In this document: piece after piece, positions 20,724 to 45,395 of the stretch
How positions within the stretch are numbered: position 1 is the first letter of the stretch
How the letters are laid out: each line of letters opens with the position of its first letter
Assembly (NCBI GenBank): GCA_017527435.1
Contig: JAFXQB010000005.1
Coordinates: 165,322-229,321 of the forward strand
Direction: 5' to 3'
From: Salinivirgaceae bacterium
GTDB lineage: Bacteria > Bacteroidota > Bacteroidia > Bacteroidales > SZUA-534
DNA length: 64,000 bases
Translations under genes and position numbers: made by a program
Notes under the pieces: generated by a model
Told to the model about the DNA's origin: nothing
The model's database searches: none
What the model saw: only the letters and a program-made list of their open reading frames with translations

Positions 20724-20768
20724 TTGTTGAGACGGGGGTGTAGAGACGTGCCATGGCGCGTCTCTACA
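20724..20768. repeat. REP copy (left flank of the RAYT): half-site GTTGAGACG plus a 30-bp palindrome
   Basis: GTTGAGACG sits at 20726-20734, followed by TGTAGAGACGTGCCATGGCGCGTCTCTACA at 20739-20768. The latter is a near-perfect palindrome centred on CCATGG. Confidence 0.9.
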
Positions 20769-20843
20769 ATGGAATATGCAGAAACATTTGCGATTATCAA
20801 TCATAAAACATATATTCGTATCAAAATCAGAATTTTACACATT

Positions 20844-27673: not shown

Positions 27674-27707
27674 TGCCGGGCGGTGGAGTAATCCGCCACA
27701 CTACTCG

Positions 27708-27925
27708 CGCAACCATTTCAACTTCCGCAGCGTCTGCATAATAGTGCGAAAAGTTTTTTAACTTTGGCAAATGGCGTTTAGTAAAACGTGCTATACGTGC
27801 GTTTTAACGATGAAGTAAAACGAAACATTGTATTGTCTCGATTCAAGAATTTGACAGGAGAAAATTTTTATAATGTGTTTGAAACTATGGTAAAAGAGAC
27901 GTTAAAAAATAATCATGAATTATGC
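27708..27925 (+). repeat. Conserved promoter plus 5' leader block, copy A (homologous to 41433..41650)
   Basis: cgcaaccatttcaacttccgcagcgtctgcataatagtgcgaaaagttttttaactttggcaaatggcgtttagtaaaac aligns with 41433-41506. Patchier similarity continues to taatcatgaatta. Confidence 0.75.
27759..27766 (+). promoter_or_regulatory. Bacteroides-type -7 box TAACTTTG
   Basis: It is an exact match to the TAnnTTTG consensus. It sits in the palindrome AAAGTT-tttt-AACTTT and is conserved in copy B. No convincing -33 TTTG. Confidence 0.5.
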
Positions 27926-28410
27926 AATCAGCATCTAAAAAATTCAAAAATAAAACCGAATATTATCGGGAGTTTATATGTTGGTTGTTACTTCTAATTG
28001 TTTTTGTTGTTGGAACAATAGATACTTTGATAACACCAGAACAAGAGTTTGTTGATTTTTTTCTTAACCGAGATTTAATCGGCGGTGCTCACCAAAGAAG
28101 AAATATTTTGATAGAGAAGTTTATCGTAAGCCATTGGGGCAGAACAGGAATGCAAGTGGTGATTGCTGTTGGAATCATTCTGCTAATCAATAAAATTCGT
28201 GACAATATTTGTGCGTACCGCCGACTATTATTCCGAGAAAAACTAATCCGCGAAGGCTTGCGCGCCCCCGATGATTATGTGGATGATTACGTACGAATTC
28301 CATTATGGAAGAAGGTTGCCAACCTGTTTACCAAAAAACGGAAAAAGAAATACCCTTCGGAGCGAGAAATGCGTGATTCGCTAAAGAAGAACAAATACTA
28401 TAAGGAGTAG
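27922..28410 (+). CDS. Hypothetical small membrane protein (2 predicted TM helices, Lys-rich tail)
   Basis: 162-aa ATG ORF in a strongly AT-rich segment. TM segments are FICWLLLLIVFVVGTI and MQVVIAVGIILLI. No family recognised. Confidence 0.5.
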   Translation: MQSASKKFKNKTEYYREFICWLLLLIVFVVGTIDTLITPEQEFVDFFLNRDLIGGAHQRRNILIEKFIVSHWGRTGMQVVIAVGIILLINKIRDNICAYRRLLFREKLIREGLRAPDDYVDDYVRIPLWKKVANLFTKKRKKKYPSEREMRDSLKKNKYYKE

Positions 28411-28440
28411 GGCAAATCGGCAGTCAATCAGTGTGATAAA

Positions 28441-28534
28441 ATCTGCGAACCCCGATAATTATCGGGGCCGTTAAATCTGCGTTCCCGATAGTTATCGGGA
28501 CTGCGTTCAAAAAAATCTGTGCGAAAATAAAACG
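28441..28534 (+). repeat. Tandem atctgcg-plus-CCCGATA hairpin units followed by the tctgcgttcaaaaaa motif
   Basis: Unit 1 is atctgcgaa + CCCCGATAATTATCGGGG (28450-28467, a perfect 18-bp palindrome). Unit 2 is atctgcgt + TCCCGATAgtTATCGGGA (28483-28500). They are followed by ctgcgttcaaaaaaatctgtgcgaaaataaaacg. Related copies occur at 43141-43198 and 43917-43950. Confidence 0.8.
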
Positions 28535-28574
28535 TGGTTGGCGGCCTTGCAAGGTTAAATGATGTGCCAATGGC

Positions 28575-28636
28575 GTAGAGACGCGGCGCAGAAAAATCAG
28601 CAAAAATCAGTTAGTTCCGCATCTTCTGCGTTCAAA
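28575..28636 (+). repeat. Decayed REP half-site plus aaaaatcNgc tail (homologous to 43044..43146)
   Basis: GTAGAGACGcggcgc lacks a right arm. It is followed by aaaaatcagcaaaaatcagttagttccgcatcttctgcgttcaaa, which aligns with gaaaaatctgcgcaaatctgttcaatctgcgtcgtctgcgttcaaa in the second island. Confidence 0.7.
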
Positions 28637-28644
28637 TGAATTTA

Positions 28645-28652
28645 TATTTTTG
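28645..28652 (+). promoter_or_regulatory. Candidate -7 box TATTTTTG for nifJ
   Basis: It is an exact TAnnTTTG match about 115 nt upstream of ATG 28768. No clear -33 element. Confidence 0.4.
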
Positions 28653-28767
28653 CGGCAAATTTCGGATACGGAAACAAAGAATTAAAAATTTAAATAAAAA
28701 ACAGAGTGTCAGATAGTTGGTAGAGGCTCTAAACCTCTCAACTCTTACCTCTCAACTTTCAAAGATT

Positions 28768-31700
28768 ATGTCGAAGAATTTTGTAACAGTTGACGGCAAC
28801 GAGGCTGCAGCGCACATTGCGTACGAGTTCACGGAGATTGCCGCAATCTACCCCATCACACCGTCGTCACCTATGGCGGAGCACACCGACGCGTGGTCGG
28901 CAAAAGGACGCAAAAATATTTTCGGTCAGCAAGTTACGCTGATTGAAATGCAGTCGGAGGCGGGTGCCATTGGTGCCGTTCACGGAGCGGCGCAGACGGG
29001 CTCGCTGGCCACAAGTTTCACATCGAGCCAAGGCCTTATGCTTATGATTCCGGTGCTGCACCGCATTGCTGGCGAGCGTCTGCCGGTGGTTCTGCACGTG
29101 GCCGCACGCACGGTGGGAACACACGCAATGAGCATCTTCGGCGACCATTCCGACGTTATGGGCTGCCGCAACACAGGTTTCGCAATGCTCTGCACGGGCA
29201 GCGTTCAGGAGGTTATCGACCTTGCCGGAGTGGCTCACCTGGCCGCCGTCAAGGGGCAGACGCCGTTTATGCACTTCTTCGACGGATTCCGCACGTCGCA
29301 CGAGATAAACACCGTGGAAATGATTGACACAAAGGCTCTTGCCGATATGCTCGACCGCGACGCCCTGCAAGCCTTCCGCTCACACGCTCTCAATCCGGAG
29401 CATCCGCTTATGCGCGGAACGGTGCAGAATCCCGACGTCTTCTTTCAAGTGCGCGAGGCCTGCAACCCTTACTACGACGCGCTTCCGCAGATTGTTGAAG
29501 ATTATTTCGAAAAGATAGGCACCCTGACAGGCCGCCACTATCACCTGTTCGACTACTACGGCGCAGCCGACGCCGACCGCGTCATTGTTGCAATGGGCAG
29601 TGTTTCGGGCGCGGTGAAAGAGGCCGTTGACAGCCTGAACGCCAAAGGCGAGAAGACTGGCTTTGTGCAGGTTCACCTTTACCGTCCGTTCAGCGCCGAG
29701 CATCTGCTCAAGGCACTGCCGCAGAGCGTCAAGAGCATTGCCGTGCTCGACCGCTGCAAGGAGCCCGGAAGCGCCGGCGAGCCGCTGTTTGAGGACGTCT
29801 GCTCGGTCATCCTGAACAGCGACAGAAAAATCAAGGTTGTGGGCGGCCGCTACGGACTTTCGTCGAAAGACACCGACCCGGGACAGATTCTGGCCGTGTT
29901 CGCCAATCTGTCTGAAAATGAGCCGAAAAACGGCTTCACCATCGGCATCACCGACGACGTTACGCACCTGTCGCTGCCAACACTGCCGTTCGACAATCAG
30001 GGCGGCGACACCTTCAGTTGCAAGTTCTGGGGCCTTGGCGGCGACGGAACGGTGGGCGCCAACAAAAACACCGTCCACATTGTGAGCGAGTGTGCAGGAC
30101 TCTACGGTCAGGCTTACTTTGAGTACGACGCCAAAAAGTCGTTCGGCGTGACCAAATCGCACCTGCGCTTCGGCAAAAACCCCATCGAAAGTTCGTACTA
30201 CGTGAAAAGCGCCGATTTTGTGGCCTGCCACAATCAGAGTTACATCGGCAAATACGATATTGTGTCGGAAGTGAAGCCGGGCGGCACGTTCCTTCTGAAC
30301 TGTACCAAAACCGACGCCGAACTTGAAGCGTGGCTTCCGGCTGACGTGAAACGGACGCTGGCACTCAACAAGATACGCTTCTGCGTGATTGACGCCACCG
30401 ACATTGCAATGAATATTGGTCTGGGAAGCCACACCAACACGGTGCTTCAGGCCGCCTTCTTCGCCTGCACGGGCATCATCAAGGCCGACGTGGCGCTCGA
30501 GGCTATGAAAGCCGCCTCCCGCAAGACCTATTTTGCTAAAGGCGAGGAAGTTGTGAACAAGAACGTGGCCGCCATCGACAAGGGTGCCGCCGGCGTTCGC
30601 GAGATTAAGGTTCCGGCTGCGTGGGCATCGGCTAAAGAAGTGGAAACCAATGCGGTGGACAACCGCCCCGCTGTGGTGCGCAATCTGCTCGAGCCCATCA
30701 ACGCGCAGAAGGGCGACGACCTGCCTGTGAGCGCTTTCGCCGATAACATCGACGGCACTCTGGAAATGGGCCTGACCGCCTACGAGAAGCGCGGCATTGC
30801 CGTGAAGGTGCCCGTCTGGAACACCGACAAGTGCATTCAGTGCAACCGCTGCTCGCTCGTCTGCCCGCACGCCGTCATCCGTCCATATCTGCTGAACGAG
30901 GCCGAAAAAGCCGCCGCGCCCGAAGGGTTCAAAACGGTTGTGGCCAACGGAAAGGCGAAGACTATGGGGCTTCATTTCGCCTTGAGCATATCGGCGCTCG
31001 ACTGCACAAGTTGCGGCAGTTGCGTGCAGAGTTGCCCGGCCAATGCGCTTGAAATGCAGCCGGCAGTGTTCAGCCAACAAGACCGCGACTGCTTCGAATA
31101 CGGATTGACAATCAGTCAGAAAGGCGATATTTTTGAGCCATACTCGATAAAGGGAAGCCAATTCCGTCAGCCGCTGCTCGAATTCTCGGCAGCCTGCGCA
31201 GGTTGCGGCGAGACGCCATACGCCAAACTGCTCACCCAACTGTTCGGCGACCGCGTGTTCTGGGCCAATGCCACAGGCTGCTCGCAGGCGTGGGGCTCGG
31301 CAATGCCCGGAATCCCTTACACGGTGAACCACCGCGGCTTCGGTCCGGCCTGGACCAACAGTCTGTTCGAGAACAATGCCGAACTCTGCCTGGGAATGTA
31401 TCTGTCTGTTAAACAGCGCCGTGCATTGCTCAAAGAGAAGATTGAGACTATGGCCGCCACAGCACAAGGCGACCTGAAAGAGGCTTGCGGCCAATGGCTG
31501 GCAACATTCGACGACATTGACAAATCGCGCGAAGCAACTGATACACTGATAGATAATCTGCAAAAGAACGCTGACGCAAAAGCGGCCGACATTCTGGCTC
31601 AGAAAGACGTTCTGTCGAAGAAGACCTTCTGGATGTTCGGCGGCGACGGCTGGGCCTACGACATTGGCTTCGGCGGCCTTGACCACGTGATTGCCGGCGG

Positions 31701-32247
31701 TGAGAATATCAATGTATTTATCATTGACACAGAGATTTACTCGAACACGGGCGGACAGAGCAGCAAGGCAACGCCGATGGGCGCTGTGGCAAAATTCGCC
31801 GCTTCGGGCAAAAAGAGCCGCAAAAAGGACCTTGGCGCCATAATGATGACCTACGGCAACGTGTATGTGGCGCAGGTGGCAATGGGCGCCGACCCGAACC
31901 AACTGATTAAGGCCGTGAAAGAGGCCGAGGAGTACGACGGACCGTCGATTGTGATTGCCTACACGCCTTGCGCGTCGCACGGAATCTGCATTGGTATGCA
32001 CCGCGTTCAGGAGGAGATGAAACGTGCCGTTGAGAGCGGCTACTGGCTGCTCTACCGCTACGACCCTCGCCGCGAGCACCCGTTCCAACTCGACTCGAAA
32101 GCGCCCACAATGCCATACAAGGAGTTCCTGGCCGGCGAGGTGCGCTACAACTCGCTCACCCGCAGTTTCCCCGAAAATGCCGAAAAACTCTTCGAGCAAG
32201 GCAGCCACGATGCCGAGGAGAGGTACAAACGGTATTCGGAGATGTGA
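28768..32247 (+). CDS. nifJ: Pyruvate:ferredoxin (flavodoxin) oxidoreductase
   Basis: 1159 aa from ATG 28768 (MSKNFVTVDGNEAAAHIAY); the track start 28717 is an upstream TTG. It has two 4Fe-4S ferredoxin motifs (CIQCNRCSLVCPHAVIRP; CTSCGSCVQSCPANAL) and the TPP motif GGDGWAYDIGFGGLDHV. Confidence 0.96.
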   Translation: MSKNFVTVDGNEAAAHIAYEFTEIAAIYPITPSSPMAEHTDAWSAKGRKNIFGQQVTLIEMQSEAGAIGAVHGAAQTGSLATSFTSSQGLMLMIPVLHRIAGERLPVVLHVAARTVGTHAMSIFGDHSDVMGCRNTGFAMLCTGSVQEVIDLAGVAHLAAVKGQTPFMHFFDGFRTSHEINTVEMIDTKALADMLDRDALQAFRSHALNPEHPLMRGTVQNPDVFFQVREACNPYYDALPQIVEDYFEKIGTLTGRHYHLFDYYGAADADRVIVAMGSVSGAVKEAVDSLNAKGEKTGFVQVHLYRPFSAEHLLKALPQSVKSIAVLDRCKEPGSAGEPLFEDVCSVILNSDRKIKVVGGRYGLSSKDTDPGQILAVFANLSENEPKNGFTIGITDDVTHLSLPTLPFDNQGGDTFSCKFWGLGGDGTVGANKNTVHIVSECAGLYGQAYFEYDAKKSFGVTKSHLRFGKNPIESSYYVKSADFVACHNQSYIGKYDIVSEVKPGGTFLLNCTKTDAELEAWLPADVKRTLALNKIRFCVIDATDIAMNIGLGSHTNTVLQAAFFACTGIIKADVALEAMKAASRKTYFAKGEEVVNKNVAAIDKGAAGVREIKVPAAWASAKEVETNAVDNRPAVVRNLLEPINAQKGDDLPVSAFADNIDGTLEMGLTAYEKRGIAVKVPVWNTDKCIQCNRCSLVCPHAVIRPYLLNEAEKAAAPEGFKTVVANGKAKTMGLHFALSISALDCTSCGSCVQSCPANALEMQPAVFSQQDRDCFEYGLTISQKGDIFEPYSIKGSQFRQPLLEFSAACAGCGETPYAKLLTQLFGDRVFWANATGCSQAWGSAMPGIPYTVNHRGFGPAWTNSLFENNAELCLGMYLSVKQRRALLKEKIETMAATAQGDLKEACGQWLATFDDIDKSREATDTLIDNLQKNADAKAADILAQKDVLSKKTFWMFGGDGWAYDIGFGGLDHVIAGGENINVFIIDTEIYSNTGGQSSKATPMGAVAKFAASGKKSRKKDLGAIMMTYGNVYVAQVAMGADPNQLIKAVKEAEEYDGPSIVIAYTPCASHGICIGMHRVQEEMKRAVESGYWLLYRYDPRREHPFQLDSKAPTMPYKEFLAGEVRYNSLTRSFPENAEKLFEQGSHDAEERYKRYSEM

Positions 32248-32289
32248 TTGAAAAGGTAAGAGGGGGAGAGTTTAGGGTTTAGATGATTG

Positions 32290-32328
32290 AGAAGGTTTGG
32301 TGCTGATGCGCTGAACCTTCTTTTTTTG
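32290..32328 (+). terminator. Rho-independent terminator of nifJ
   Basis: gaaggtt (32291-97) ... aaccttc (32314-20) form the stem, followed by TTTTTTT. Confidence 0.75.
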
Positions 32329-32446
32329 TGCATATCGGCACCCGAAAACACTTTTTTCGCCCCCGATTCAAAAAAAATCGCCCGGCAGATGCCAAAATCA
32401 TTAAATAGTAACTACTTTCAAGCGGTTTTTTGCAAAAAACGTATTT

Positions 32447-33223
32447 ATGAAATCACACGAAATTGACTACAAAGTTATCGGGCACGACATTCAACTTGTT
32501 GAGGTTGAGCTTGACCCGGGCGAGACGGTGATTGCCGAGGCCGGCACAATGATGTATATGGAGGACGGCATTGAGTTCGACACCAAGATGGGCGACGGCT
32601 CAAACCCGCAGGCCGGATTCTTCGACAAGCTGCTGTCGGCGGGCTCGCGGATGATTGCCGGCGAGTCGGTTTTCATCACGCACTTCACCAACCGTGGCTT
32701 CGGCAAGCGCCACGTGGCCTTCTCGGCGCCCTATCCGGGCACCATTATGCCGGTGAATCTTGCGCAGTCGGGCTACAGCATCATTGTGCAGAAAGACGCC
32801 TTCTTGTGCGCCGCGCTTGGCACACGCATATCGATAACCTTCAACCGCCGCCTGGGAGCGGGTCTGTTTGGCGGCGAGGGCTTTATTCTGGAGCGGCTCG
32901 ATGGCGATGGAATGGCCTTCCTGCACGCCTGCGGTGCCGTGGTTGAACGGCAGCTCAACAACGAGACGCTGCGCGTTGACACGGGCTGCATTGTGGGCTT
33001 TGAGCCGCAAATCGATTACGACATACAGGTGGCCGGAAACCTGAAATCGTCGCTGTTTGGCGGCGAGGGCCTGTTTGTGGCAACTCTGCGCGGCACGGGG
33101 CGCGTATGGCTGCAGAATATGCCTGTCCGCAAGCTGATTCAGGCTTTGATGCCGCAGTCGCCCAACGCTCGCAAAGAGAACCAAAGTCTGTTCAACAACC
33201 TGAACAATCTGTTTGAACGATAA
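32447..33223 (+). CDS. TIGR00266/AIM24 (DUF124) family protein
   Basis: 258 aa. The N-terminus MKSHEIDYKVIGHDIQLVEVELDPGETVIAEAGTMMYMEDGIEF and the GGEG repeats are typical of this family. Confidence 0.85.
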   Translation: MKSHEIDYKVIGHDIQLVEVELDPGETVIAEAGTMMYMEDGIEFDTKMGDGSNPQAGFFDKLLSAGSRMIAGESVFITHFTNRGFGKRHVAFSAPYPGTIMPVNLAQSGYSIIVQKDAFLCAALGTRISITFNRRLGAGLFGGEGFILERLDGDGMAFLHACGAVVERQLNNETLRVDTGCIVGFEPQIDYDIQVAGNLKSSLFGGEGLFVATLRGTGRVWLQNMPVRKLIQALMPQSPNARKENQSLFNNLNNLFER

Positions 33224-33251
33224 AGTCGGCATTATAAAGATTAAAAAATCA

Positions 33252-37141: not shown

Positions 37142-37398
37142 TTTTTTTACTGCAATTATTTCTAAAAACTTCCGCTCGCCAAAAATGTTTCGTCTTTTTC
37201 CAACGAAAACCTTTCGCCGAATCATCTTTTTTCAATCCTTCCTACATTCATTCAATTCTTCTTTTCCCCCTTCCCGTTTTCCCCTTCCCATTACCTTGGC
37301 ACACAATTTGCTAATACGTATATCCACCATTTTTATATGGCACAATTGTTTAAACAGCAAAATCACTAATTTCGCGCGATTTTTTTGAACTTATTAAG

Positions 37399-38811
37399 AT
37401 GAAACGTAAAATCACCATTGGCGACATTACAATGAAACAGGCCGCCGACAAGGCCGACTACGCCTTCTCGTTCCGCGAGAAGATTGAATTGGCCAAAATG
37501 CTTGACAAAACAGGCCTTTCGGTCATTGAACTTGCACCTATAACCGACGGCAAAACCGACTCGCTGCTAATCAAATCGCTCGCTTCGGCGGTGAAGAACA
37601 GCGCTGTGGCCGTGCCGCTCAACATTAGCGAGGCCGACACCGTTGAAACCACTTGGAACGCCCTGAAGGGCGCCGCTCACCCGCGATTGCAGATTTCGGT
37701 TCCTGTGAGCACCGTGCAGATGGAATATTTCTGCCATAAGAAACCCGCCGCCATTGTCGAGATGATTGCCAGCCTGACAAAGCAAAGCCGTGCGCTCTGC
37801 CCCGATGTTGAGTTTGTGGCCGAAGATTTTGGCCGCAGTGACATCAGTTTCCTGTGGCAGGCCATTGAAGCCGCCACGCAGAACGGCGCAACCACCGTCA
37901 CGGTGTGCGACGCCGCAGGCAACCTGCTGCCCGAAGAGTTTTTCGACCTTGTGAAACAGGTGAAAGTGCACCTGCCCGCTGGTGTTCGGTTGGGCGTTCG
38001 CTGCTCAAACGAGTTCTATTTGGCCGACTCGTGCGCCATTGCCGCCGTGCGTGCGGGTGCCGACGAGATTAAGACCGCGCCCTTCGGCAACTTCACCGTT
38101 TCGCTCGAAAGGTTTGTCAAGATACTGAACGTGAAAGCCGATGTGTGCGACGCCTGCTGCGACGTGCGTGCCACCGAACTGCACCGCGCCGTTGAGCAAA
38201 TCAAGCGCCTGTGCCAGACCAACCGTTCGAAACCCACTTCGTTCTCGAACATTGCCCCAACCGAGCGCCCCGACATTCAACTCACCGTGCGCGACTCGAA
38301 AGAGACCGTGCTCAAGGCCGTGCAGAGTCTGAACTTCGACCTGACCGACGAAGATGCCGACAATGTTTACAACGAATTCCTGAAAGCCGCCGCCACTCAC
38401 GAGACCGTTGGCGCGAAGGAACTCGACGCCATTATCGCCACAGCGGCGTTCCAGGTGCCACCAACCTATAAATTAGAGAATTACGTTATCAATTCGGGCA
38501 ACATTATCTCGGCCACCTGCCACATTCTCTTGAAGAAGGGCGACGATGTGCTCGAGAGCGTCTGCATTGGCGACGGCCCGATTGACGCCGCCTTCCAGGC
38601 CATTGAGAAAGTCATCGGCAAGCACTACGAACTCGACGACTTCCAGATTCAGGCCGTGACCGAAGGCCGCGAGGCAATGGGCGAAACCGTTGTCCGCCTG
38701 CGCTCTGAAGGCAAAATCTACTCGGGCCGCGGAATCTCAACCGACATTGTCGGCTCAAGCATTGCCGCCTACCTGAACGCCGTCAACAAGATAGCATTCG
38801 AAGAGGCATAA
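37399..38811 (+). CDS. Isopropylmalate/citramalate-synthase homologue lacking catalytic residues, with an intact LeuA regulatory (dimerisation) domain
   Basis: 470 aa. It is colinear with LeuA, but DTTLRDGEQ is replaced by DITMKQAAD and HCHNDLG by RCSNEFY. VEFVAEDFGRSD and VTVCDAAGNLLPEEF are retained. The C-terminal domain GDGPIDAAFQAIEKV...GREAMGETVVRLRSEGKIYSGRGISTDIVGSSIAAYLNAVNK matches LeuA_dimer. Confidence 0.75.
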   Translation: MKRKITIGDITMKQAADKADYAFSFREKIELAKMLDKTGLSVIELAPITDGKTDSLLIKSLASAVKNSAVAVPLNISEADTVETTWNALKGAAHPRLQISVPVSTVQMEYFCHKKPAAIVEMIASLTKQSRALCPDVEFVAEDFGRSDISFLWQAIEAATQNGATTVTVCDAAGNLLPEEFFDLVKQVKVHLPAGVRLGVRCSNEFYLADSCAIAAVRAGADEIKTAPFGNFTVSLERFVKILNVKADVCDACCDVRATELHRAVEQIKRLCQTNRSKPTSFSNIAPTERPDIQLTVRDSKETVLKAVQSLNFDLTDEDADNVYNEFLKAAATHETVGAKELDAIIATAAFQVPPTYKLENYVINSGNIISATCHILLKKGDDVLESVCIGDGPIDAAFQAIEKVIGKHYELDDFQIQAVTEGREAMGETVVRLRSEGKIYSGRGISTDIVGSSIAAYLNAVNKIAFEEA

Positions 38812-38849
38812 ATCGAAAATTATCAGCATTTTACAGAAAATCACTTAAA

Positions 38850-41336
38850 ATGAAACTTTCATTTTCAACACGCGGATGGGCCGATATGTCGTGGACCGAA
38901 ATCCTTGACAACGCAAGCCTGATGCGCTTTTCGGGTATCGAGATATACAACGTTTTCAAAACGCCTGAATTTGTGGCCAAGGGCGGGCCGTTCCACAAGT
39001 ACTCGCTCACGGCTTCGCTGCGCGATTTGCGCGAGAAGAAACTCGCCATTCCCTGCTTCGACAGTTCGCTCGACCTTTCGGAAGACAGCGCCGAGATGAT
39101 TGACGAGATGACCGCCCTCATTGGCATTGCCGCCGATATGCGCAGCCCATACGTTTGCGCTTTCGCGAAGAAGGGCACCGTTGAGCAGGTGAAGCAGAAC
39201 CTGACCCGACTCATTCCTGTGGCCGAAGCCAAGGGTATCACCATTCTGATAAAGACCAGCGGAATATACGCCGACACGGCGCTGCTGCGCGATTTGCTCG
39301 ACTTTTTCGCCTGCGACCAGATTGCCGTCATTTGGGATGTGCACCACCCCTACCGCGACAAGGGCGAGACGCCTGCGCAGACAATCACCAACCTTGGCGC
39401 ATACGTTAAGCACGTGCACCTTCGCGACAGCGACGACGCCAACCGCTACAACATTATCGGCGAGGGCAACTTCCCCATTGCCGACGTGATGAAGGCCCTT
39501 TCGTCGGTCGATTACGACGGGTTTATCTCGCTTGAGTGGAAGCCCGAGTGGATGCTCGACTTCACCGACCGCGACGTCATTTTCCCGCACTTTGTCAACT
39601 ATATGAGCCAGTTCGAGAACACCCGCGGCAAGCGCAGCGAACTCTACCCGAACCACGACGGCTCAGGCTACTACATTTGGAAGAAGGACGAGCTGCTGAA
39701 TATGACCTTCTCGCAGGTTTTGGACCGCGTGGTTGAGGAATTCCCCGACCAGTACTGCTTCAAATACACCACTTTGGACTACACCCGCACCTACGCCGAG
39801 TTCCGCGACGATGTTGACAACTTCGCCCGCGCGCTTGTATCGCTCGGCGTGCGCCCAGGCTCGAAGGTGGCCGTTTGGTGCACCAACATACCTGCTTGGT
39901 ACATAACATTTTGGGCAACCGTAAAAATCGGCGCCGTGCTTGTGACGGTGAACACCGCCTACAAGATTCACGAGGCCGAATATCTGCTGCGGCAGTCTGA
40001 TACTCACACACTTGTGATGATTGAGAGCGCCTTGGACTCGAACTATCGCGCCATTATCAACGAACTCTGTCCCGAGATTGCCACCAACACGGCGGGCAAG
40101 CCGCTTCACTGCAAGCGTCTGCCGTTCCTGCGCAACGTTATCACCGTGGGCTTCCGCCAGAAAGGCTGCCTGACGCTGCAACAGGCGATGGACCGCCACG
40201 ACCTTGTGCCGTTGGAGGAAATCCAGCGAATGGCCGCCGCCGTCAAACCCGACGACGTGTGCAATATGCAGTACACCAGCGGCACCACGGGCTTCCCCAA
40301 GGGCGTGATGCTGACGCACTACAACGTGGTGAACAACGGCAAGTGCATTGGCGACCGTATGGGCCTTTCAACCGCCGACCGAATGATGATTCAGGTGCCG
40401 ATGTTCCACTGCTTCGGAATGGTTCTGTCGATGACTTCGTCGATGACGCACGGTACCACAATGTGCCCGATGCCCTACTTCTCGGCCAAATCGTCGTTGG
40501 CGTGCATAAACCAGGAACACATAACCTGCTTCAACGGCGTGCCCACAATGTTCATTGCAATGTTCAACCACCCCGACTACCGCAGCACCGACTTCTCATA
40601 TATGCGCACAGGCATTATGGCAGGCTCAGGCTGTCCACCCGAACTGATGCGCCGTGCCGCCGAGCCGTCGGAGATGAATATGCGCGGCATTGTGAGCGTT
40701 TACGGACAGACCGAATCGGCGCCAGGCAGCACAATGTCGGCTTGGACCGACTCAATCGACGTGCGCACCGAGACCGTGGGCTACGCCTTCCCGCACGTGC
40801 GCTGCAAGGTGGTTGACCCCGAAACGGGCCTTGAGGTTCCGCCCAACACCAACGGCGAGTTCTGCGCCAAAGGCTACAACGTGATGAAAGGCTACTACAA
40901 GATGCCCGAAGCCACCGCGCAGACCATTGACGCCGACGGTTGGCTTCACAGCGGCGACCTTGCCTGCGTTGACGAGAACGGAAACTACAAAATCACAGGC
41001 CGCCTGAAAGATATGATTATCCGCGGCGGCGAGAATATCTATCCAAAAGAGATTGAGGAGTTTATCTACACCCACCCCAAGGTGAAGGACGTTCAGGTTA
41101 TCGGCGTTCCCGACGAGAAATACGGCGAGGAGGCAATGGCCTGCATTATTCTGAAGGAGGGCGAGGAGATAAGCGAACCCGAAATGCGCGAATTCATTAT
41201 GGGCCGCCTTGCCCGCCACAAGGTTCCGCGCTATATCGATTTCGTCAAATCGTTCCCGATGAACGCCGCAGGCAAAATCCTGAAATACAAGATGCGCGAG
41301 GAGGCCGTGGAGAAATTGGGGCTGAAGAAGAAATAA
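38850..41336 (+). CDS. Fusion protein: xylose-isomerase-like TIM barrel (AP endonuclease 2 fold) plus AMP-dependent acyl-CoA synthetase/ligase
   Basis: 828 aa, 38 nt after the previous gene. The N-terminal about 265 aa resemble sugar-phosphate isomerase/epimerase TIM barrels (..GIEIY.., HVHLRD, ISLEWKPEW). The C-terminal about 550 aa carry adenylate-forming motifs YTSGTTGFPKG, VYGQTESAP, WLHSGDLA, GRLKDMIIRGGENIYPKEIE and PMNAAGKILK. Confidence 0.85.
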   Translation: MKLSFSTRGWADMSWTEILDNASLMRFSGIEIYNVFKTPEFVAKGGPFHKYSLTASLRDLREKKLAIPCFDSSLDLSEDSAEMIDEMTALIGIAADMRSPYVCAFAKKGTVEQVKQNLTRLIPVAEAKGITILIKTSGIYADTALLRDLLDFFACDQIAVIWDVHHPYRDKGETPAQTITNLGAYVKHVHLRDSDDANRYNIIGEGNFPIADVMKALSSVDYDGFISLEWKPEWMLDFTDRDVIFPHFVNYMSQFENTRGKRSELYPNHDGSGYYIWKKDELLNMTFSQVLDRVVEEFPDQYCFKYTTLDYTRTYAEFRDDVDNFARALVSLGVRPGSKVAVWCTNIPAWYITFWATVKIGAVLVTVNTAYKIHEAEYLLRQSDTHTLVMIESALDSNYRAIINELCPEIATNTAGKPLHCKRLPFLRNVITVGFRQKGCLTLQQAMDRHDLVPLEEIQRMAAAVKPDDVCNMQYTSGTTGFPKGVMLTHYNVVNNGKCIGDRMGLSTADRMMIQVPMFHCFGMVLSMTSSMTHGTTMCPMPYFSAKSSLACINQEHITCFNGVPTMFIAMFNHPDYRSTDFSYMRTGIMAGSGCPPELMRRAAEPSEMNMRGIVSVYGQTESAPGSTMSAWTDSIDVRTETVGYAFPHVRCKVVDPETGLEVPPNTNGEFCAKGYNVMKGYYKMPEATAQTIDADGWLHSGDLACVDENGNYKITGRLKDMIIRGGENIYPKEIEEFIYTHPKVKDVQVIGVPDEKYGEEAMACIILKEGEEISEPEMREFIMGRLARHKVPRYIDFVKSFPMNAAGKILKYKMREEAVEKLGLKKK

Positions 41337-41384
41337 AAATCACAGAGAGCGCAGAGGAAACGAGAGAACACAGAGTTTAAATAG

Positions 41385-41417
41385 CAAGGCTGCCTGATTG
41401 GGCGGCCTTGTTTTATT
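41385..41417 (+). terminator. Rho-independent terminator of the 37399..41336 operon
   Basis: caaggctgcc-tgattg-ggcggccttg forms the stem, followed by TTTTATT. Confidence 0.7.
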
Positions 41418-41432
41418 ATCGACAGGCAACCC

Positions 41433-41650
41433 CGCAACCATTCCCGCCTCCACCGCGTCATATAACTGCAAAAAGTTTTAACTTTGGCTTATGGTGTTTA
41501 GTAAAAACAGATGACAATCCATTGAATAAATGAGAGGAAAGTTTGTTTTATAATCTTGAAAAAAATGACGAAAGAAAAAATACAATTCGTAAGGGTAGTA
41601 CTAAGGATATAATGGATTATGAAAAACTGTACACTAATCATAGGGAATTA
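41433..41650 (+). repeat. Conserved promoter plus 5' leader block, copy B (homologous to 27708..27925)
   Basis: cgcaaccattcccgcctccaccgcgtcatataactgcaaaaagttttaactttggcttatggtgtttagtaaaaac matches copy A. Patchy similarity continues to taatcatagggaatta. Confidence 0.75.
41479..41486 (+). promoter_or_regulatory. Bacteroides-type -7 box TAACTTTG
   Basis: It is an exact TAnnTTTG match at the same position in the conserved block as 27759-27766. It sits in the palindrome AAAGTT-tt-AACTTT. Confidence 0.5.
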
Positions 41651-41709
41651 TTTTATAAATATCAAATAAACCATATTTATAAAACTCACAAAACTTATAA
41701 TGCAAGCAA

Positions 41710-42831
41710 ATGAAAAAGTTTATAATTCTGTTGCTATTGTTTATTTGTATAAACGGCAATTGTCAAAGCATAGACGAGATTTTGACAAAATTTGAACAAA
41801 TACAAAGTTATGCACGGCATCGCCTACTTAATTATCGCAGCTACCGCTACAGGCCTTTGCAAGATTTTAGTAGCGAATTGCCATTTAGTTTTGGATTAAC
41901 ACATTTAGACAATCCCACTTATAATGGGTTTGATTTATCGACACGAGGTGTTTTTTCCGATTCCTCTATGCAGATGCGCATACTTCAATTATTGAATAAT
42001 GAATTCTACGATGGTGAGGTTGACGACTTGTGGAAAAAAGATATGCAAAAAAACAATTATGCAAATTTGACTGATAGTTTGTTGCGCATAAAAAGGATAG
42101 AAAGAGAAACTTGTTATAAAAAGTATATTGATGAAAATGAATTGGTTGATTTGTTGGAAATTTGCACATACATAAATAACAAGCAAATAATCAAAAGAAT
42201 TGAAGAAATTTACAAAGACACCACATACCGCAAAAATTGGGCAGATGCTTACGCTTGTCTTGTTGCCAACCATATAGAGCCATATACTTCAGAATGTCTC
42301 AAAAAATATAGGTATAAGAAAGAACAATCATATGAAGAACAAGTATTGGCATGCAATTATTTATGGCTGATTCAAACTCAACAATCATTTAGGTACTTAT
42401 CTGAATATTTATTTTCAGATAAGTACTACACAAACATTATATGCGAAGATAATACGTATGAATGCGAGTCATTGGATGACATTATTGTTGAGATAGATTG
42501 TGAATCGGGAGTTGCAGATACGATTATTAAATGTGAAAATAATACGAATAAAGGCGATACATTGAAATACGATATTGATGTAGATTATATTGATTTAGAA
42601 GATGAAGATACAAATCCAATAATAGCGGAATGGGAATATAAAACATATTTGTATTGGGGAGTTTTCTCTATTATCCAAAAGAGCATTTTAAATCTAGACT
42701 TGTATGACATGCTGGGCATAACAAATGACATATTTGTATCTCAAGAATTCTTGACAGAAGAAACTCGTAAAAAGATTTATAATTGGATGCAGGAAAATTA
42801 TGGTAAGTATAAAATCAAGAATCGTTGGTAA
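41710..42831 (+). CDS. Hypothetical secreted protein (AT-rich, Cys/Asp/Glu/Tyr-rich)
   Basis: 373 aa with a signal peptide (MKKFIILLLLFICINGNCQS). AT content is very high. No family recognised. Its ATG overlaps the stop of a 33-codon upstream ORF (ATGA). Confidence 0.6.
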   Translation: MKKFIILLLLFICINGNCQSIDEILTKFEQIQSYARHRLLNYRSYRYRPLQDFSSELPFSFGLTHLDNPTYNGFDLSTRGVFSDSSMQMRILQLLNNEFYDGEVDDLWKKDMQKNNYANLTDSLLRIKRIERETCYKKYIDENELVDLLEICTYINNKQIIKRIEEIYKDTTYRKNWADAYACLVANHIEPYTSECLKKYRYKKEQSYEEQVLACNYLWLIQTQQSFRYLSEYLFSDKYYTNIICEDNTYECESLDDIIVEIDCESGVADTIIKCENNTNKGDTLKYDIDVDYIDLEDEDTNPIIAEWEYKTYLYWGVFSIIQKSILNLDLYDMLGITNDIFVSQEFLTEETRKKIYNWMQENYGKYKIKNRW

Positions 42832-42899
42832 TAAAAGAAATTTGTGTCGCATATTTCGCAAAATACTATCAATATGAAGAAAACAAAACCAACTAAACC

Positions 42900-42989
42900 A
42901 TGCCAAACCTTAGAAAACTACTAATGGTGCTGCTGTGTGCTGTCTGCGGTACGGCAGCGGGGCAAACCTACACCACAAAAACGCAATGA
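42900..42989 (+). pseudogene. Possible remnant of a secreted-protein gene (signal peptide only)
   Basis: The GC-normal 29-codon ORF MPNLRKLLMVLLCAVCGTAAGQTYTTKTQ* looks like a signal peptide followed immediately by a stop and repeat-derived sequence. Speculative. Confidence 0.3.
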
Positions 42990-43043
42990 AAAAATACCGC
43001 AAGGCTTGCCGGGAATGCCGGGGTTGTATGGGGTGCCCTTAAC

Positions 43044-43198
43044 GTAGAGACGCGGCGCGCCACGTTTGTGCAGGTGGCGGGCGTTAGTGAAGCATAGAAA
43101 AATCTGCGCAAATCTGTTCAATCTGCGTCGTCTGCGTTCAAAAAATCTGCGTACCCCGATAGTTTATCGGGACTGTGTCGTCAGTGCGAGAATAAACA
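43044..43198 (+). repeat. Composite REP-derived tail, copy B
   Basis: GTAGAGACGcggcgcgccaCGTTTGTGC is a REP with a decayed right arm. It is followed by gaaaaatctgcgcaaatctgttcaatctgcgtcgtctgcgttcaaaaaatctgcgta, then CCCGATAgttTATCGGG (43154-43170), then gtgcgagaataaacac. The same modules occur at 28441-28636 in a different order. Confidence 0.75.
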
Positions 43199-43206
43199 CA
43201 ATTTTT

Positions 43207-43214
43207 TAAATTTG
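43207..43214 (+). promoter_or_regulatory. Candidate -7 box TAAATTTG
   Basis: It is an exact TAnnTTTG match 16 nt upstream of ATG 43230. Confidence 0.45.
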
Positions 43215-43229
43215 ACACATTAAAACTTG

Positions 43230-43865
43230 ATGGATATGAAATCAATAGTTGCCGTTATCGCGTCGCTGACATTGCTGTTTACGGGGATTTATATCGCTCT
43301 TATGCTTAGAATCAATTCCACACCAGGAGCATTCAACTATCCAGCCAGTAATATCTCGGAACCCAACAGACAAGCGATAGAAAAAACACTGAAAGTATTT
43401 CAAGAAGGTTACACGTTGCGCGATGTGTCGAAAATCGACGAGTGCATAGCCCAAACCATCGACACCGCTTCGATTTTTATTTTGGGCACCAATCCCAACG
43501 AAATATTCGAGGGGAAAGACGGGGCGCAGGCGCTGCTATATGGCGATTGGACATATTGGGGCAGTGTGAAATATGACATCGACCGCCTTTATGCCAACCA
43601 AATCGCCGACAGCATTGCTTATGTGGTTTTCCCAGGAAATATCACACTTGATGTTGGAAAAATGAACTTCCCACTGCAAGTTACAGGCTTGATGGCGCAA
43701 GATGAGGACGGCCAGTGGAAATTCTCGAAAATGCAGTTCATATATGGTTGGAACACCAATTATATCATCTTCGCCCGCATTGCGGCTTACGGAACCCTGA
43801 TTCTACTGGCAGCGCTGCTGGCGTTTATCTGCATCATAAGGTGCGTATTGAGCCGAAAGAAATAA
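43230..43865 (+). CDS. Hypothetical membrane protein with a possible NTF2/SnoaL-like (DUF4440-like) central domain
   Basis: About 211 aa, with the start at ATG 43230 or 43236. It has N- and C-terminal TM helices. The central region (IEKTLKVFQEGYTLRDVSKIDECIAQ...QWKFSKMQFIYG) resembles NTF2-fold proteins from memory only. Confidence 0.5.
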   Translation: MDMKSIVAVIASLTLLFTGIYIALMLRINSTPGAFNYPASNISEPNRQAIEKTLKVFQEGYTLRDVSKIDECIAQTIDTASIFILGTNPNEIFEGKDGAQALLYGDWTYWGSVKYDIDRLYANQIADSIAYVVFPGNITLDVGKMNFPLQVTGLMAQDEDGQWKFSKMQFIYGWNTNYIIFARIAAYGTLILLAALLAFICIIRCVLSRKK

Positions 43866-44200
43866 GGAATACATTCCGTTCTGATTCTGTGTCGTCTGTG
43901 TGATATAAAATCTACGTTATCTGCGTTCAAAAAATCCATGCAAGAACAAACGCAAAATGCTGTGTAGCTGCTAGTTTGGTAGCGTTTTTTATGCAGTTTC
44001 GAAAAAAAATTTAATACCCACGCAACCTTTTCACAAACACCAGCGTCTTGGAAACGTGAAAAGTAATTCCGATGACTGCAAACATCGATTTAATTTGCAG
44101 ATTGAAATTAATATCTATATTTGTTGATATGAAAACTTGTTTTAGCAACAGTGAAAAAATCATGCATGACAGGCATAACCTGCTGAATGCCAGCATTTTA

Positions 44201-44225
44201 CCCCCCCCCCCCCCACCCCACCCCA
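44201..44225. repeat. Homopolymeric tract C14-A-C4-A-C4-A (G-quadruplex-capable on the minus strand)
   Basis: Direct count: 44201-44214 are all C, then a cccc a cccc a. It lies 121 nt upstream of ATG 44346. Confidence 0.95.
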
Positions 44226-44345: not shown

Positions 44346-45395
44346 ATGAAAAAATTATGTGTTTTTGGAATGCTGTTACTGTCCACAGCAGCTATGGCTC
44401 AGTATGGAACCAATGGCGAATCGGGCAGATACCACGTTGTTAAATTCCCAAAGTACTATGTGGAGCAAGACCAACGGACATTTGCTGTTAATGTTGACAT
44501 TGCGACAAAGAAAGTCGCAGGCTATGTGGATGCCGAAGAATTGGCAGAAAAAGTGCGGTTCAAAGGTTGGTCAAAAACACCTGAAGACAAAGCTTATTTG
44601 AATATTAAAATCACGTTAGGCGAGTTTCTTTATCTTTCAACAGAAATACTTGATCAATCTGTTGATGAAAAGCAAAAAGACGGTAGCGTTAAACGCAAAC
44701 CTATTTATGTAGGTTCTTTTAAGTATTCTTTCCCCATCACTCTCTCTCTGACATCGCCTGTCAACAATGATAAGTATCGTCTTAACCAAGATGGGATGAT
44801 GGTTAAGACTCTGACTTATACCGATGACCACAAGTTTTCAACCCGTGCTGATGCTTCTGCGTTTATGAAAGAAAACAGAGATGTTCTTAGTGAAAAAGTT
44901 ATTAGACAACTTGCGAACGAAGCAGCCGCAAGTGCGGTAAATTCGGCCGTTATTGATTATGGTTTCGCAAGCACAACCGAAAAAGCATCTTATGTTTTCT
45001 TAGATTCAAAAAAGAATCCTCACTATGAATCTCAAAAGAACGCTAATACACAACTTAAAGAGATATTCAAGACAAGTTCTGCTGATGAACCAATTAGTTC
45101 TGATGCGTTAACTCCAATTATTGAAGAATACATTAGCATAATAAACGAATTGAATGATGCTGATAAAAAGCAACTGAAAGCTAAAATTGAGCTTATAACT
45201 TCTGTTGCAGAGTTCTATCTTATGCTGGATGATCTTGCATCATGCGAAACTTGGGCCAAACGCGCGTTTGACGAATATAAGGAGAAAGATGGTTCAAAAA
45301 TTTTGGAAAAAGCAGCCGCAGTGAAGGCTTTGTTTGACAAGCACCATGTTACTTCACGCCATTTTGTTCCGCAAGCTCCTGCTGTTGAAGAATAA
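44346..45395 (+). CDS. Hypothetical secreted protein
   Basis: 349 aa from ATG 44346 (MKKLCVFGMLLLSTAAMAQ signal peptide). The track start 44187 reads through the poly-C tract and is rejected. The C-terminal third is helical and Lys/Glu-rich. No family recognised. Confidence 0.6.
   Translation: MKKLCVFGMLLLSTAAMAQYGTNGESGRYHVVKFPKYYVEQDQRTFAVNVDIATKKVAGYVDAEELAEKVRFKGWSKTPEDKAYLNIKITLGEFLYLSTEILDQSVDEKQKDGSVKRKPIYVGSFKYSFPITLSLTSPVNNDKYRLNQDGMMVKTLTYTDDHKFSTRADASAFMKENRDVLSEKVIRQLANEAAASAVNSAVIDYGFASTTEKASYVFLDSKKNPHYESQKNANTQLKEIFKTSSADEPISSDALTPIIEEYISIINELNDADKKQLKAKIELITSVAEFYLMLDDLASCETWAKRAFDEYKEKDGSKILEKAAAVKALFDKHHVTSRHFVPQAPAVEE

Follow-up and report, generated by a model that had tools for sequence, protein, structure and literature searches.

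In the 64,000 nt window analysed here, the whole stretch taken from contig JAFXQB010000005.1 of a Salinivirgaceae bacterium, the segment 41425-42989 is very probably a toxin-immunity module that derives from a polymorphic toxin system and has decayed, leaving an orphan immunity gene beside the remnant of a toxin gene. Its observed basis is the homologies of the parts, the gene contexts of their homologues, the variation from genome to genome and the selective constraint on the cargo gene. The toxin gene would have been almost wholly deleted at this site, leaving a head that carries the start codon (41425..41514), the last 54 codons of a metzincin-type toxin domain (41549..41713), an intact downstream gene for a 373 aa protein (41710..42831) and a stub of the next gene of the donor locus (42883..42989), all on the plus strand. 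Loss of the toxin with an intact immunity gene left behind is a familiar fate in bacterial warfare loci. All of the features listed in the initial annotation of this DNA, namely a leader copy, short ORFs, a cargo gene, a stub, a REP and tail modules, are present at their positions, and what had been described as an orphan secreted protein with uORFs can now be read as an orphan immunity gene, a toxin pseudogene fragment and a truncated neighbouring gene. The toxin family concerned is a barely studied one from uncultured gut and rumen Bacteroidales.

The toxin remnant was recognised by tblastn, in which the frame 41549-41713 matches residues 539-592 of the metagenomic toxin P0017 with 72% amino acid identity over 54 residues (E 4e-16), and the nucleotide identity is 86.6% over 41609-41720. 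The remnant is the 3' end of a gene for a polymorphic toxin whose C-terminal domain is a metzincin; the HExxHxxGxxH motif itself has been deleted. The metagenomic metzincin toxins end in HELGHVLGLSH, with a match to Pfam Reprolysin_5 at 3.4e-7. Since the contigs break inside the gene, this toxin has never been seen complete, and a search of the genus (16 genomes) with the conserved toxin region as query did not find it.

The 373 aa protein encoded at 41710..42831 begins with a signal-peptide-like segment and, as had been noted, its gene is far more AT-rich than its surroundings, with a GC content of 0.32-0.40 against 0.55-0.58 in the upstream gene. It belongs to no Pfam or NCBIfam family, and when named genomes were scanned with the cargo alignment, the sister MAG and one Bacteroidales MAG from horse faeces were the only matches. 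In all five contigs seen (within L026-L031), a metzincin-ended toxin lies directly 5' of the cargo homologue (41-80% identity), with a 4 nt overlap between the genes. Because the homologues always follow the toxin directly and share this ATGA overlap, the immunity protein of the metzincin toxin is the most likely identity of the cargo, and the suggestion of an immunity protein made in the initial annotation is, from these toxin-adjacent homologues, the best reading of the gene. The dN/dS of 0.15 against a 79% identical homologue indicates purifying selection. Structure prediction, proposed as a way of recognising an immunity or effector fold, yielded nothing of the kind; the AlphaFold2 model, from a 14-sequence alignment, is an all-alpha helical solenoid of moderate confidence (pLDDT 63.5), for which Foldseek found no match in the PDB at E ≤ 0.001, only generic alpha-solenoids.

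The 373 aa protein is unlikely to be a chaperone, an adaptor, a secreted co-factor or some other accessory of the metzincin domain that has been retained in a different role, or the product of a stranded gene in the course of being lost. The lack of an immunity-family domain and of a fold match would agree with such a role, as would the use of alpha-solenoids as adaptors and the great rarity of the family, which has 16 clusters among 5.8 billion proteins and two species representatives only. However, a place directly 3' with overlapping start and stop codons is the standard toxin-immunity layout, the survival of an intact and constrained gene after toxin loss is the pattern of orphan immunity, an accessory factor would have no obvious use once the toxin had gone, and the signal peptide suits protection of the periplasm. 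As an immunity protein, the product would be exported to the periplasm by its signal peptide and would there neutralise the metzincin toxin sent by competitors, so that the orphan gene would be retained for defence. The metzincin toxin domain and the 373 aa helical protein are thus a candidate pair for experiment. Searches of Pfam and NCBIfam with the five cargo proteins of this genome, ten cargo candidates from its relatives and four small leader ORFs returned sub-threshold noise only, and no Pfam immunity family was found on any of the 15 cargo proteins. In metagenome contexts, the cargo of the sister unit (u1) had no toxin beside it in any instance, and therefore not every cargo associated with a head is demonstrably an immunity gene.

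The sequence 41425..41514 had been described as the second copy of a leader, and its 41430-41507 portion does match 27706-27787 at about 80% identity over about 85 nt, with repeat family D14 (31 nt, 90%) joining the two. The first copy heads the sister unit u1 (27706..28660, plus strand), which has a head of subtype A+x, a small leader ORF, a 162 aa cargo with two TM segments, and a tail of the same modules. Three further copies in the genome, at C6:17318, C20:112839 and C5:559255, show that the match is not due to chance. The sequence model R1, which matches the present head (subtype A') at 41430-41507 with 62.7 bits, detects the head about 50 times within the genus, in 12 of 16 genomes, but not once in 45 genomes of other genera; the 85 nt head can serve as a simple marker for such modules within the genus. 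In the whole window the Rfam scan found two tRNAs and nothing else, and the head is therefore no known RNA element.

As judged from the genes that follow it, the head represents the start codon and the preceding sequence of a genus-specific, short-form toxin gene family. In G009:C10 it precedes an intact toxin ORF of 906 aa with an overlapping ORF of 109 aa, in G002:C55 a 5'-deleted toxin of 539 aa with a TM protein, and elsewhere toxin remnants of 54-157 aa, giving a graded series of 906, 539, 157, 70, and 54 aa. Deletion remnants appear to follow most of the approximately 50 heads seen in the genus. That the toxin has been lost behind most heads seen, with the upstream region and the intact downstream gene kept, points to selection for defence over attack. 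The head was also considered as a piece of toxin coding sequence and rejected as such, for it is just the 3' part of y-type heads that shares 25 nt with a toxin gene, the 5' part being unmatched.

The head contains the box TAACTTTG (41479-41486), which fits the Bacteroidetes -7 consensus TAnnTTTG, and a conserved ATG at 41491 that in the present unit opens a frame of just 7 codons (MVFSKNR and a stop). With 4 nt between the -7 box and the ATG, an mRNA starting here would be nearly leaderless, and the real promoter may be further upstream within the head. Directly upstream, a terminator-like hairpin with a T-run (41386..41415, plus strand), read from the sequence as AAGGCTGCC..GGCGGCCTT then gtttt, closes the preceding TIM-barrel::acyl-CoA-ligase gene (38850-41336), which would mean that the module probably needs a promoter of its own. 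Together with the -7 box this suggests that the head is probably the source of that promoter.

The likely relationship of the parent toxins emerges from their long forms, which are 1,000-2,300 aa and have a Sec signal, Fn3 domains, a conserved middle region of about 330 aa, and a variable C-terminal toxin. This conserved region is represented by 1,506 representative clusters, mostly of 1,000-2,300 aa, in which the match is mid-protein and is followed by unrelated C-termini; members in the genus have the ITIDY..HExxH region in common and differ in the C-terminus. In the short form of the genus, the protein begins within this middle region (MTTLRT..HSGITIDY..HELSHGAF), and the gene is preceded by a conserved sequence of its own, about 85 nt long. 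The full-length toxin locus of the present genome, C21, has a toxin with an AT-rich C-terminus, a 136 aa multi-TM ORF, and further on the 682 aa gene that matches the stub. The long form in G004:C11 is 1,228 aa, begins MKRSILHIILLLWAMLPATTAHSQ, has an Fn3 match at 2.3e-9, and follows a 2,846 aa SprB-repeat protein with a T9SS CTD (signal peptide and CTD judged by eye).

These toxins look like members of the TANFOR class. The available part of its description portrays large proteins that carry a Sec signal, Fn3 domains and a polymorphic toxin domain at the C-terminus, each followed by an immunity gene; the toxin genes adjoin SprB-repeat T9SS substrates, and a toxin domain may also have a downstream gene to itself (Jana, Salomon & Bosis 2020, PMC7073777). 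The Sec signal, Fn3 and SprB-repeat neighbour of the G004:C11 long form repeat this layout, and four of six long relatives match the TANFOR model TIGR02542 in full-length yet sub-threshold fashion (E 3e-5 to 1e-4, model positions 4-142, below the 67-bit cut-off). In contrast, TIGR02542 reaches its cut-off in none of the members tested and has no match in the 1,228 aa long form of the genus, and the unit studied here derives from, or is joined to, a short form without the signal peptide and N-terminal half and with a conserved upstream region of its own. Neither the metzincin C-terminal domain nor the 373 aa immunity family is in that part of the TANFOR description (PMC7073777). Immunity genes of the present kind would face a large uncharacterised TANFOR-like branch, of about 1,500 representative clusters, whose conserved region has no Pfam model.

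Homology to the toxin locus extends a short way beyond the immunity gene. In blastn against L026, 42805-42873 is 80% identical before the sequences diverge, so that the flank 42832..42873 (plus strand) would have come along with the immunity gene. The 29-codon ORF that follows (42900-42989) had been suspected to be the decapitated 5' end of a displaced gene, and this is borne out by 72% protein identity to C21:71402-71316, the start of a 682 aa Fn3 ORF (C21:71402..69354) downstream of the genome's own full-length toxin locus. The stub as a whole (42883..42989), with its 29-codon signal peptide, is 79% identical in DNA to C21:71317-71419. G015:C17 has two copies of this stub between its modules, and the stub probably served as the right-hand homology arm in module exchange.

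Comparison of the orthologous site, another course that had been proposed, found other cargo, tandem modules or nothing in the congeners. Other cargo stands behind the same head in G011, G002 and G004, there are tandem modules in G008, G009, G013 and G015, and in G007 both head and cargo are absent. The cargo type of u1 is present at the u2 site in G002 and G003. On the right, the variable stretch is bordered in 10 congeners by a conserved gene outside the module (43227..43865, plus strand), which encodes a membrane-anchored SnoaL/NTF2-like protein with a weak match to Pfam SnoaL_3. Of the cassette-like unit put forward in the initial annotation, the strain-variable module with a conserved head is upheld, but not the paired ends of an element mobilised by REP and RAYT.

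The cargo at the present and sister sites would have been swapped by homologous recombination, with the head or the conserved toxin region as left arm and the stub, the REP, the heptamer repeats or the flank gene as right arm. Like the promoter activity, the periplasmic location and the neutralisation of the toxin, this mechanism of recombination is a part of the module reading that we infer. Some exchange junctions and one apparent recent rearrangement, at 28.6 kb and 43.9 kb, which separates the present genome from CAMJCK01, the two being 97-98% identical over their aligned stretches, fall inside REP or heptamer repeats; the coincidence of short intergenic repeats with exchange junctions and rearrangement bears on genome structure. 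Orphan cdiA-CT/cdiI and rhs-CT/rhsI modules are reportedly displaced downstream of CDI and Rhs loci. The present modules are like these in having toxin 3' fragments with an intact immunity gene, exchanged by homologous recombination, as proposed here, through short homology to the conserved part of a full-length toxin, here the 25 identical nt (E 5e-10) between y-type heads and the codons HSGITIDY of the C21 toxin, and in boundary fragments repeated between modules, here the stub found twice in G015. They differ in that they are not stacked behind a main toxin but dispersed at five separate loci between housekeeping genes, in that they carry a promoter-like head, and in that the remnant is the last 54 codons only, with no conserved pre-toxin region left.

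A wider reading of these modules is more doubtful than probable. It would have the heads and the generic repeats (REPs, heptamer arrays and CCCGATA hairpins) make up a genus-specific, recombinase-free cassette system, in which toxin-less immunity modules from TANFOR-like, T9SS-associated toxins stay expressed through the retained toxin promoter and move among five or more landing sites in the chromosome, recombining through the head of about 85 nt at the left end and through portable repeats at the right end. If so, the idea of acquired interbacterial defence would extend to rumen Bacteroidales that lack T6SS, and REP-type repeats would gain a role as homology arms for gene exchange.

The AID-1, AID-2 and rAID-1 systems of gut Bacteroidales likewise hold orphan immunity genes without toxins (Ross et al. 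2019; bioRxiv 10.1101/471110), and in rAID-1 a XerD-family recombinase heads the cluster and arrays comprise up to 31 genes (bioRxiv 10.1101/471110). The units described here share with them toxin-less orphan immunity, a skewed low GC (0.32 against 0.55-0.58), a strain-variable content and sometimes an array, and, as in rAID, there is repetitive sequence between cassettes, the head and tail being repeated between tandem modules. They differ in having no adjacent XerD-family recombinase or mobile element, in being spread, singly or in pairs, over several places in the chromosome instead of forming one array, and in that each keeps the toxin's upstream region, start codon and 3' remnant. The toxins are of a TANFOR-like class, and none of the 15 cargo proteins matched a catalogued immunity family in Pfam. 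The T6SS sheath gene VipB/TssC was not detected in any of the 16 genomes of the genus, in a search whose control set held no T6SS-positive Bacteroidales, and Bacteroidales without a detected sheath gene still appear to stock immunity genes without toxins.

An integron-like or rAID-like platform, in which the 10 nt centre of the head, TTAACTTTGGC, would be the crossover core at which a site-specific recombinase acting in trans inserts or shuffles promoter-proximal immunity cassettes, is improbable. An alignment of 14 heads does show them to be mosaic, with 5' parts (A, A', B) and 3' parts (x, y) recombined around this invariant centre, and G011, G002 and G004 share the 5' part at one site and differ from the centre onwards. 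The presence of one cargo type at two different sites, the repeated intergenic units in tandem arrays, and the combination of skewed GC with repetitive intergenic sequence seen in rAID-1 (bioRxiv 10.1101/471110) would also agree with it. However, no recombinase gene adjoins the module; none of the seven tyrosine recombinase genes of the genome (PF00589) is near any head, and there are none in the loci read in relatives. The marks of an integron were sought, and there is no adjacent integrase; apart from the generic repeats, the 3' ends of the cassettes show no conserved imperfect palindrome. On the right, the junctions differ from one another (hairpin, heptamers, REP, stub), which fits homologous rather than site-specific recombination, and the graded deletions of the toxin suggest that the genes decayed where they stood. 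Functional constraint accounts for the invariant centre, which falls together with the -7 consensus and the start codon.

The tail of the unit begins with a REP composite (43022..43071, repeat families D5 and D13) that, as had been reported, is half decayed, the left arm being intact, with GTAGAGACG at 43044, and the right arm degraded to CGTTTGTGC. It is followed at 43096..43171 by generic intergenic repeats (families D11 and D16), consisting of degenerate ATCTGCG-type heptamers (43096-43150), ctgcgttcaaaaaa, and a CCCGATA..TATCGGG hairpin (43155-43171). The same modules also follow the 27.7 kb unit (D11, D13), as described previously. They are, however, not specific to such units, since they occur genome-wide, matching in both orientations, with 65 REP loci, 684 ATCTGCG heptamers and 92 CCCGATA hairpins in the genome; every head has such a tail and most tails have no head. 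The REP is site DNA in common with G004, which is identical from the REP onwards despite its different cargo, and the tail repeats are the site-specific right flank in G011, G002, and G004. A REP is nevertheless present in the tails of four of the five units, against 0.18 expected by chance, an enrichment that is real.

REP/RAYT systems and REPINs have reportedly been described in bacteria, and the window has the corresponding parts: a REP palindrome family, the half-decayed copy in the unit tail and, as described, a REP-flanked RAYT-like gene 20 kb away (20724-21413), the closest RAYT to the unit, with a perfect flanking inverted repeat of 29 nt and a weak match to Pfam Y1_Tnp (E 0.017). It had been supposed that head and tail are paired ends between which this transposase captures or mobilises cargo, which is now very improbable and largely refuted by the anatomy of the units. 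Besides the enrichment at module tails, it would be consistent with the three REP loci in the C21 toxin locus, with a RAYT gene inside the variable stretch of G009:C10, and with the boundary between cassette-specific and site-specific sequence, which falls in the REP when G004 is compared with the present genome. Yet the REPs are on the 3' side only, the head is REP-free and accounted for as the 5' region of a toxin gene, the tail is generic, and inverted REPs do not enclose any of the units. In unit u3 a REP is lacking altogether, 61 of the 65 REP loci have no relation to a head, and G011 and G002 carry cargo at the site without a REP. The unit is also far larger than the DNA that RAYTs are known to move; to our knowledge, they move only REP or REPIN units of tens of bases, not kilobases of cargo. 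The tail REP is a passenger or homology patch, not the end of an element.

The two short ORFs described upstream of the cargo are both present, MTKEKIQFVRVVLRI at 41566-41613, which is the remnant read out of frame, and a 33-codon ORF at 41612-41713, which falls inside the 54-codon toxin remnant and whose TGA overlaps the cargo ATG at 41710 in ATGA. Although such ORFs and their overlap exist, and the kept last 33-54 toxin codons could still bring ribosomes to the cargo start, there is hardly any likelihood that they are a translational attenuator or coupling device controlling the cargo, as had been suggested, given that the overlapping ORF is homologous to the toxin 3' end rather than a conserved leader peptide, that MTKEKIQFVRVVLRI is out of frame, and that the small ORFs behind the five heads (7-77 codons) are mutually unrelated, with no leader peptide conserved among the copies. 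The recurrence of the ATGA overlap in the five contigs indicates that it is inherited from the junction of toxin and immunity genes.

A sixth, decayed head is present at 44019..44085 (plus strand), where R1 matches with 15.3 bits (E 0.0022) over model positions 4-51 only, upstream of another AT-rich gene for a secreted protein (44346-45395).

The unit under study (u2) probably behaves as an orphan immunity gene that retains a toxin remnant, an arrangement known from CDI and Rhs orphan modules. All of the sequence features listed in the initial annotation were found in the window, which is C16:165322-229321 of a 3.17 Mb Bacteroidales genome in 26 contigs. A terminator-like hairpin lies 3' of the acyl-CoA-ligase fusion gene, followed by the head, a conserved leader of about 85 nt (41425-41512) that resembles 27706-27787, and then by the 373-codon cargo ORF (41710-42831), the ATG of which is overlapped by the TGA of a short ORF. 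The GC content falls from 0.55-0.58 to 0.32-0.40 in u2. Further 3' are a signal-peptide ORF of 29 codons, the stub (42900-42989), a half-decayed REP (43044), and a tail of heptamer-like atctgcg modules and a CCCGATA..TATCGGG hairpin, these tail modules being present also after the sister unit at 27.7 kb (u1).

Among 5.8 billion proteins there are 16 clusters of homologues of the 373-aa cargo protein, which matched no family in Pfam or NCBIfam. In every metagenome contig with a homologue, there is a 4-nt overlap with the gene immediately before it. The large proteins encoded there, severed by the contig end at lengths of at least 226 to at least 816 aa, terminate in ..VHELGHVLGLSHTF..NIMDYESTYTNHRKLFYKYQINHIYKTHKTYNANK, a metzincin motif with a Pfam Reprolysin_5 match (3.4e-7). 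The short overlapping ORF of the window had been suggested to be a uORF acting in attenuation or translational coupling. The frame 41549-41713, reading ..DIMDYEKLYTNHRELFYKYQINHIYKTHKTYNASK, is 72% identical to the last 54 residues of the toxin (E 4e-16), which means that it is instead the 3' stump of a toxin gene that has lost its catalytic motif. The cargo is the gene normally next after the toxin; its dN/dS is 0.15 versus a 79%-identical homologue, and homology to the intact toxin locus stops about 40 nt past its stop codon. When the suggestion of an immunity or effector fold was followed up, the structure model, of moderate confidence, was an all-helical solenoid, which would suit an immunity protein without being diagnostic of one, and comparison with PDB folds gave no significant match.

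The sole full-length member of the toxin family in this genome is at the end of contig C21 (G000 C21:69354-77945) and, being severed by the contig end, is at least 989 aa long; the C-terminal third is AT-rich. Directly after it comes a multi-TM ORF of 136 aa (GC 0.27), and beyond this are repeats, a DUF4143 ATPase gene, and the gene for a 682-aa Fn3 protein. There are three REP loci within the locus. A search of the genus with the conserved part of this toxin placed that region immediately behind several heads. In the case of G009:C10, the head ATG opens an intact 906-aa ORF, starting MTTLRTDSTHSGITIDY..HELSHGAFALHHTF and ending in a variable C-terminus, which is followed by an overlapping 109-aa ORF; this module occupies the site that holds u1 in the window genome. 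In G002:C55, the head is fused to a 5'-deleted 539-aa toxin followed by a 165-aa TM protein, and elsewhere stumps of 54-157 aa are all that is left. Stretches of 25 and 19 nt (E 5e-10), in the y-type heads of u5 and G004, respectively, recur in the C21 gene at codons HSGITIDY. With heads joined to toxin ORFs and sharing these nucleotides, the head is therefore the upstream region and start codon of a short form of the toxin gene. The Bacteroidetes -7 promoter consensus is TAnnTTTG, and the head carries TAACTTTG, which matches it; together with the terminator before the head, this leads us to infer that the head carries a promoter. Each head is a mosaic in which a 5' variant (A, A' or B) and a 3' variant (x or y) flank the invariant TTAACTTTGGC. 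Internal deletions would have taken out the toxin and left the head and downstream gene, the units of this genome being what remained. Between the intact short-form module of G009:C10 and nifJ (L043) are two ORFs (455-1102 and 1349-2158), one a RAYT-like gene of 215 aa with the motif PNHIHLIV, the other of 269 aa with shorter paralogues in the C21 locus.

The conserved toxin region, covered by no Pfam model, was found in 1,506 representative clusters (E <= 0.001), most of them 1,000-2,300 aa long and matching at about residues 600-950. Of six long members, four have full-length but sub-threshold matches to the TANFOR domain (TIGR02542), and one of the six ends in an M23 peptidase. In G004:C11 (L058, 206-13367), a 2,846-aa SprB-repeat protein, T9SS-type at its C-terminal end, precedes a 1,228-aa long-form toxin, with a signal peptide and an Fn3 domain, and a 305-aa exported protein. 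This gene order matches the layout reported for TANFOR polymorphic toxins, proposed to be T9SS-associated (PMC7073777). A search of the 16 genomes of the genus for a T6SS sheath gene was negative, the control set for this search being without T6SS-positive Bacteroidales.

A sequence-only covariance model identified about 50 heads in 12 of the 16 genomes of the genus, 1-11 per genome, and none in 45 further genomes from other genera within the family and order. At the orthologous u2 site, the two flanking genes are conserved, that of the ligase and, downstream, that of a SnoaL-like membrane protein, and the content between them is variable. The cargo is as in the window in G014 (97-98% identical over aligned stretches); there is a head of the same type and then a 190-aa two-TM protein in G011, a u1-type cargo in G002, a 63-aa ORF and a 171-aa cytoplasmic protein in G004, and two heads or several modules, some with DUF4143 ATPase genes, in G008, G009, G013, and G015. 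In G007 there is only about 100 bp with a plain terminator, and neither head nor cargo. The proposed comparison therefore revealed both an empty site and polymorphic ones, and such varied content between conserved flanks makes this stretch a hypervariable module site. In four genomes, and also in metagenome contigs, AAA_14/DUF4143 ATPase genes recur inside the variable toxin/immunity stretches (L014 3601-4902; L015 2752-4053; C21:71749-73104; L063 3644-4945 and 6388-7530). The u1 cargo (window 27922-28410) is a 162-aa two-TM protein. Its family comprises 72 clusters, in which the basic C-terminal tail, ..REGLRAPDDYVDDYVR.PLW..KKRKKKYPSEREMRDSLKKNKYYKE, is strongly conserved. Every context seen for this family is without toxin, at a ligase..nifJ locus, and two members are labelled 'Salinivirgaceae bacterium' by NCBI.

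It had been proposed that u2 is a mobile cassette with paired REP-type ends. BLAST and nhmmer of the whole genome identified five heads, those of u2, u1, u3 (C6:17318), u4 (C20:112839), and u5 (C5:559255), each followed by a small AT-rich ORF and then a larger one with a TM segment or signal peptide. REP loci are enriched at these units, with 4 of 5 having one versus 0.18 expected. Tail modules are, however, spread genome-wide in both orientations (65 REP loci, 684 ATCTGCG heptamers, and 92 CCCGATA hairpins), so that every head has such a tail, yet tails occur independently of heads. G004 has a different cargo but identical sequence from the REP onwards; the REP composite and following heptamers are site DNA. 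u2 does not qualify as a REP-bounded element. Orphan immunity genes also occur in gut Bacteroidales, in AID and rAID-1 clusters (bioRxiv 10.1101/471110). An adjacent XerD-type recombinase would be expected for rAID-1, which u2 lacks; there is no tyrosine recombinase near any head in this genome. An integron cassette and a leader-peptide attenuator were also considered for u2 and rejected.

The stub is, as had been supposed, the decapitated 5' end of a displaced gene: it is 72% identical in protein and 79% in DNA to the beginning of the C21-locus gene for the 682-aa Fn3 protein. It is present twice in G015, between successive modules, as expected if the 5' end of the Fn3 gene served as a right-hand homology arm when new toxin-tip/immunity blocks recombined in. 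The junctions of the G011 and G002 cargoes lie to the right of the REP, within the heptamers or the CCCGATA hairpin. The sister MAG (L060 = CAMJCK010000015.1), 97-98% identical over aligned stretches, joins window 37288-43911 directly to 28625-33224, with both breakpoints (43911, 28625) in tctgcgttcaaa tail repeats. Either intergenic repeats were the site of a very recent rearrangement or one of the two genomes is misassembled here; most congeners have the gene order of the sister MAG, ligase then nifJ. Together, the junctions are consistent with homologous recombination between short stretches of shared sequence. A terminator-like hairpin, GGGGCGGAAACCAAATTCCCGCCCC, stands before B-type heads and again after their modules (L032 = G002:C61 560-1300; G000 C5:559200-561130), these modules therefore being bracketed by direct repeats of about 40 nt; tandem arrays with B-type heads have the order hairpin-head-cargo-REP-tail-hairpin-head.

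The novelty is modest. What is new is a TANFOR-like toxin branch with a short form that is confined to one uncultured genus and would bear its own promoter; the pairing of a metzincin with a helical protein; the prevalence of modules that lack the toxin yet keep its own upstream region; and the finding that exchange junctions coincide with REP and heptamer repeats.

A decayed sixth head (window 44019-44085), matching the 5' half of the head model only, is located upstream of an AT-rich secreted-protein gene (44346-45395) and after a second tail-type repeat patch (43880-43936). One more module, of greater age, may account for the low-GC island at 43.9-46.3 kb. A C14-A-C4-A-C4 tract is present at 44201-44225, upstream of the 44346 ORF.
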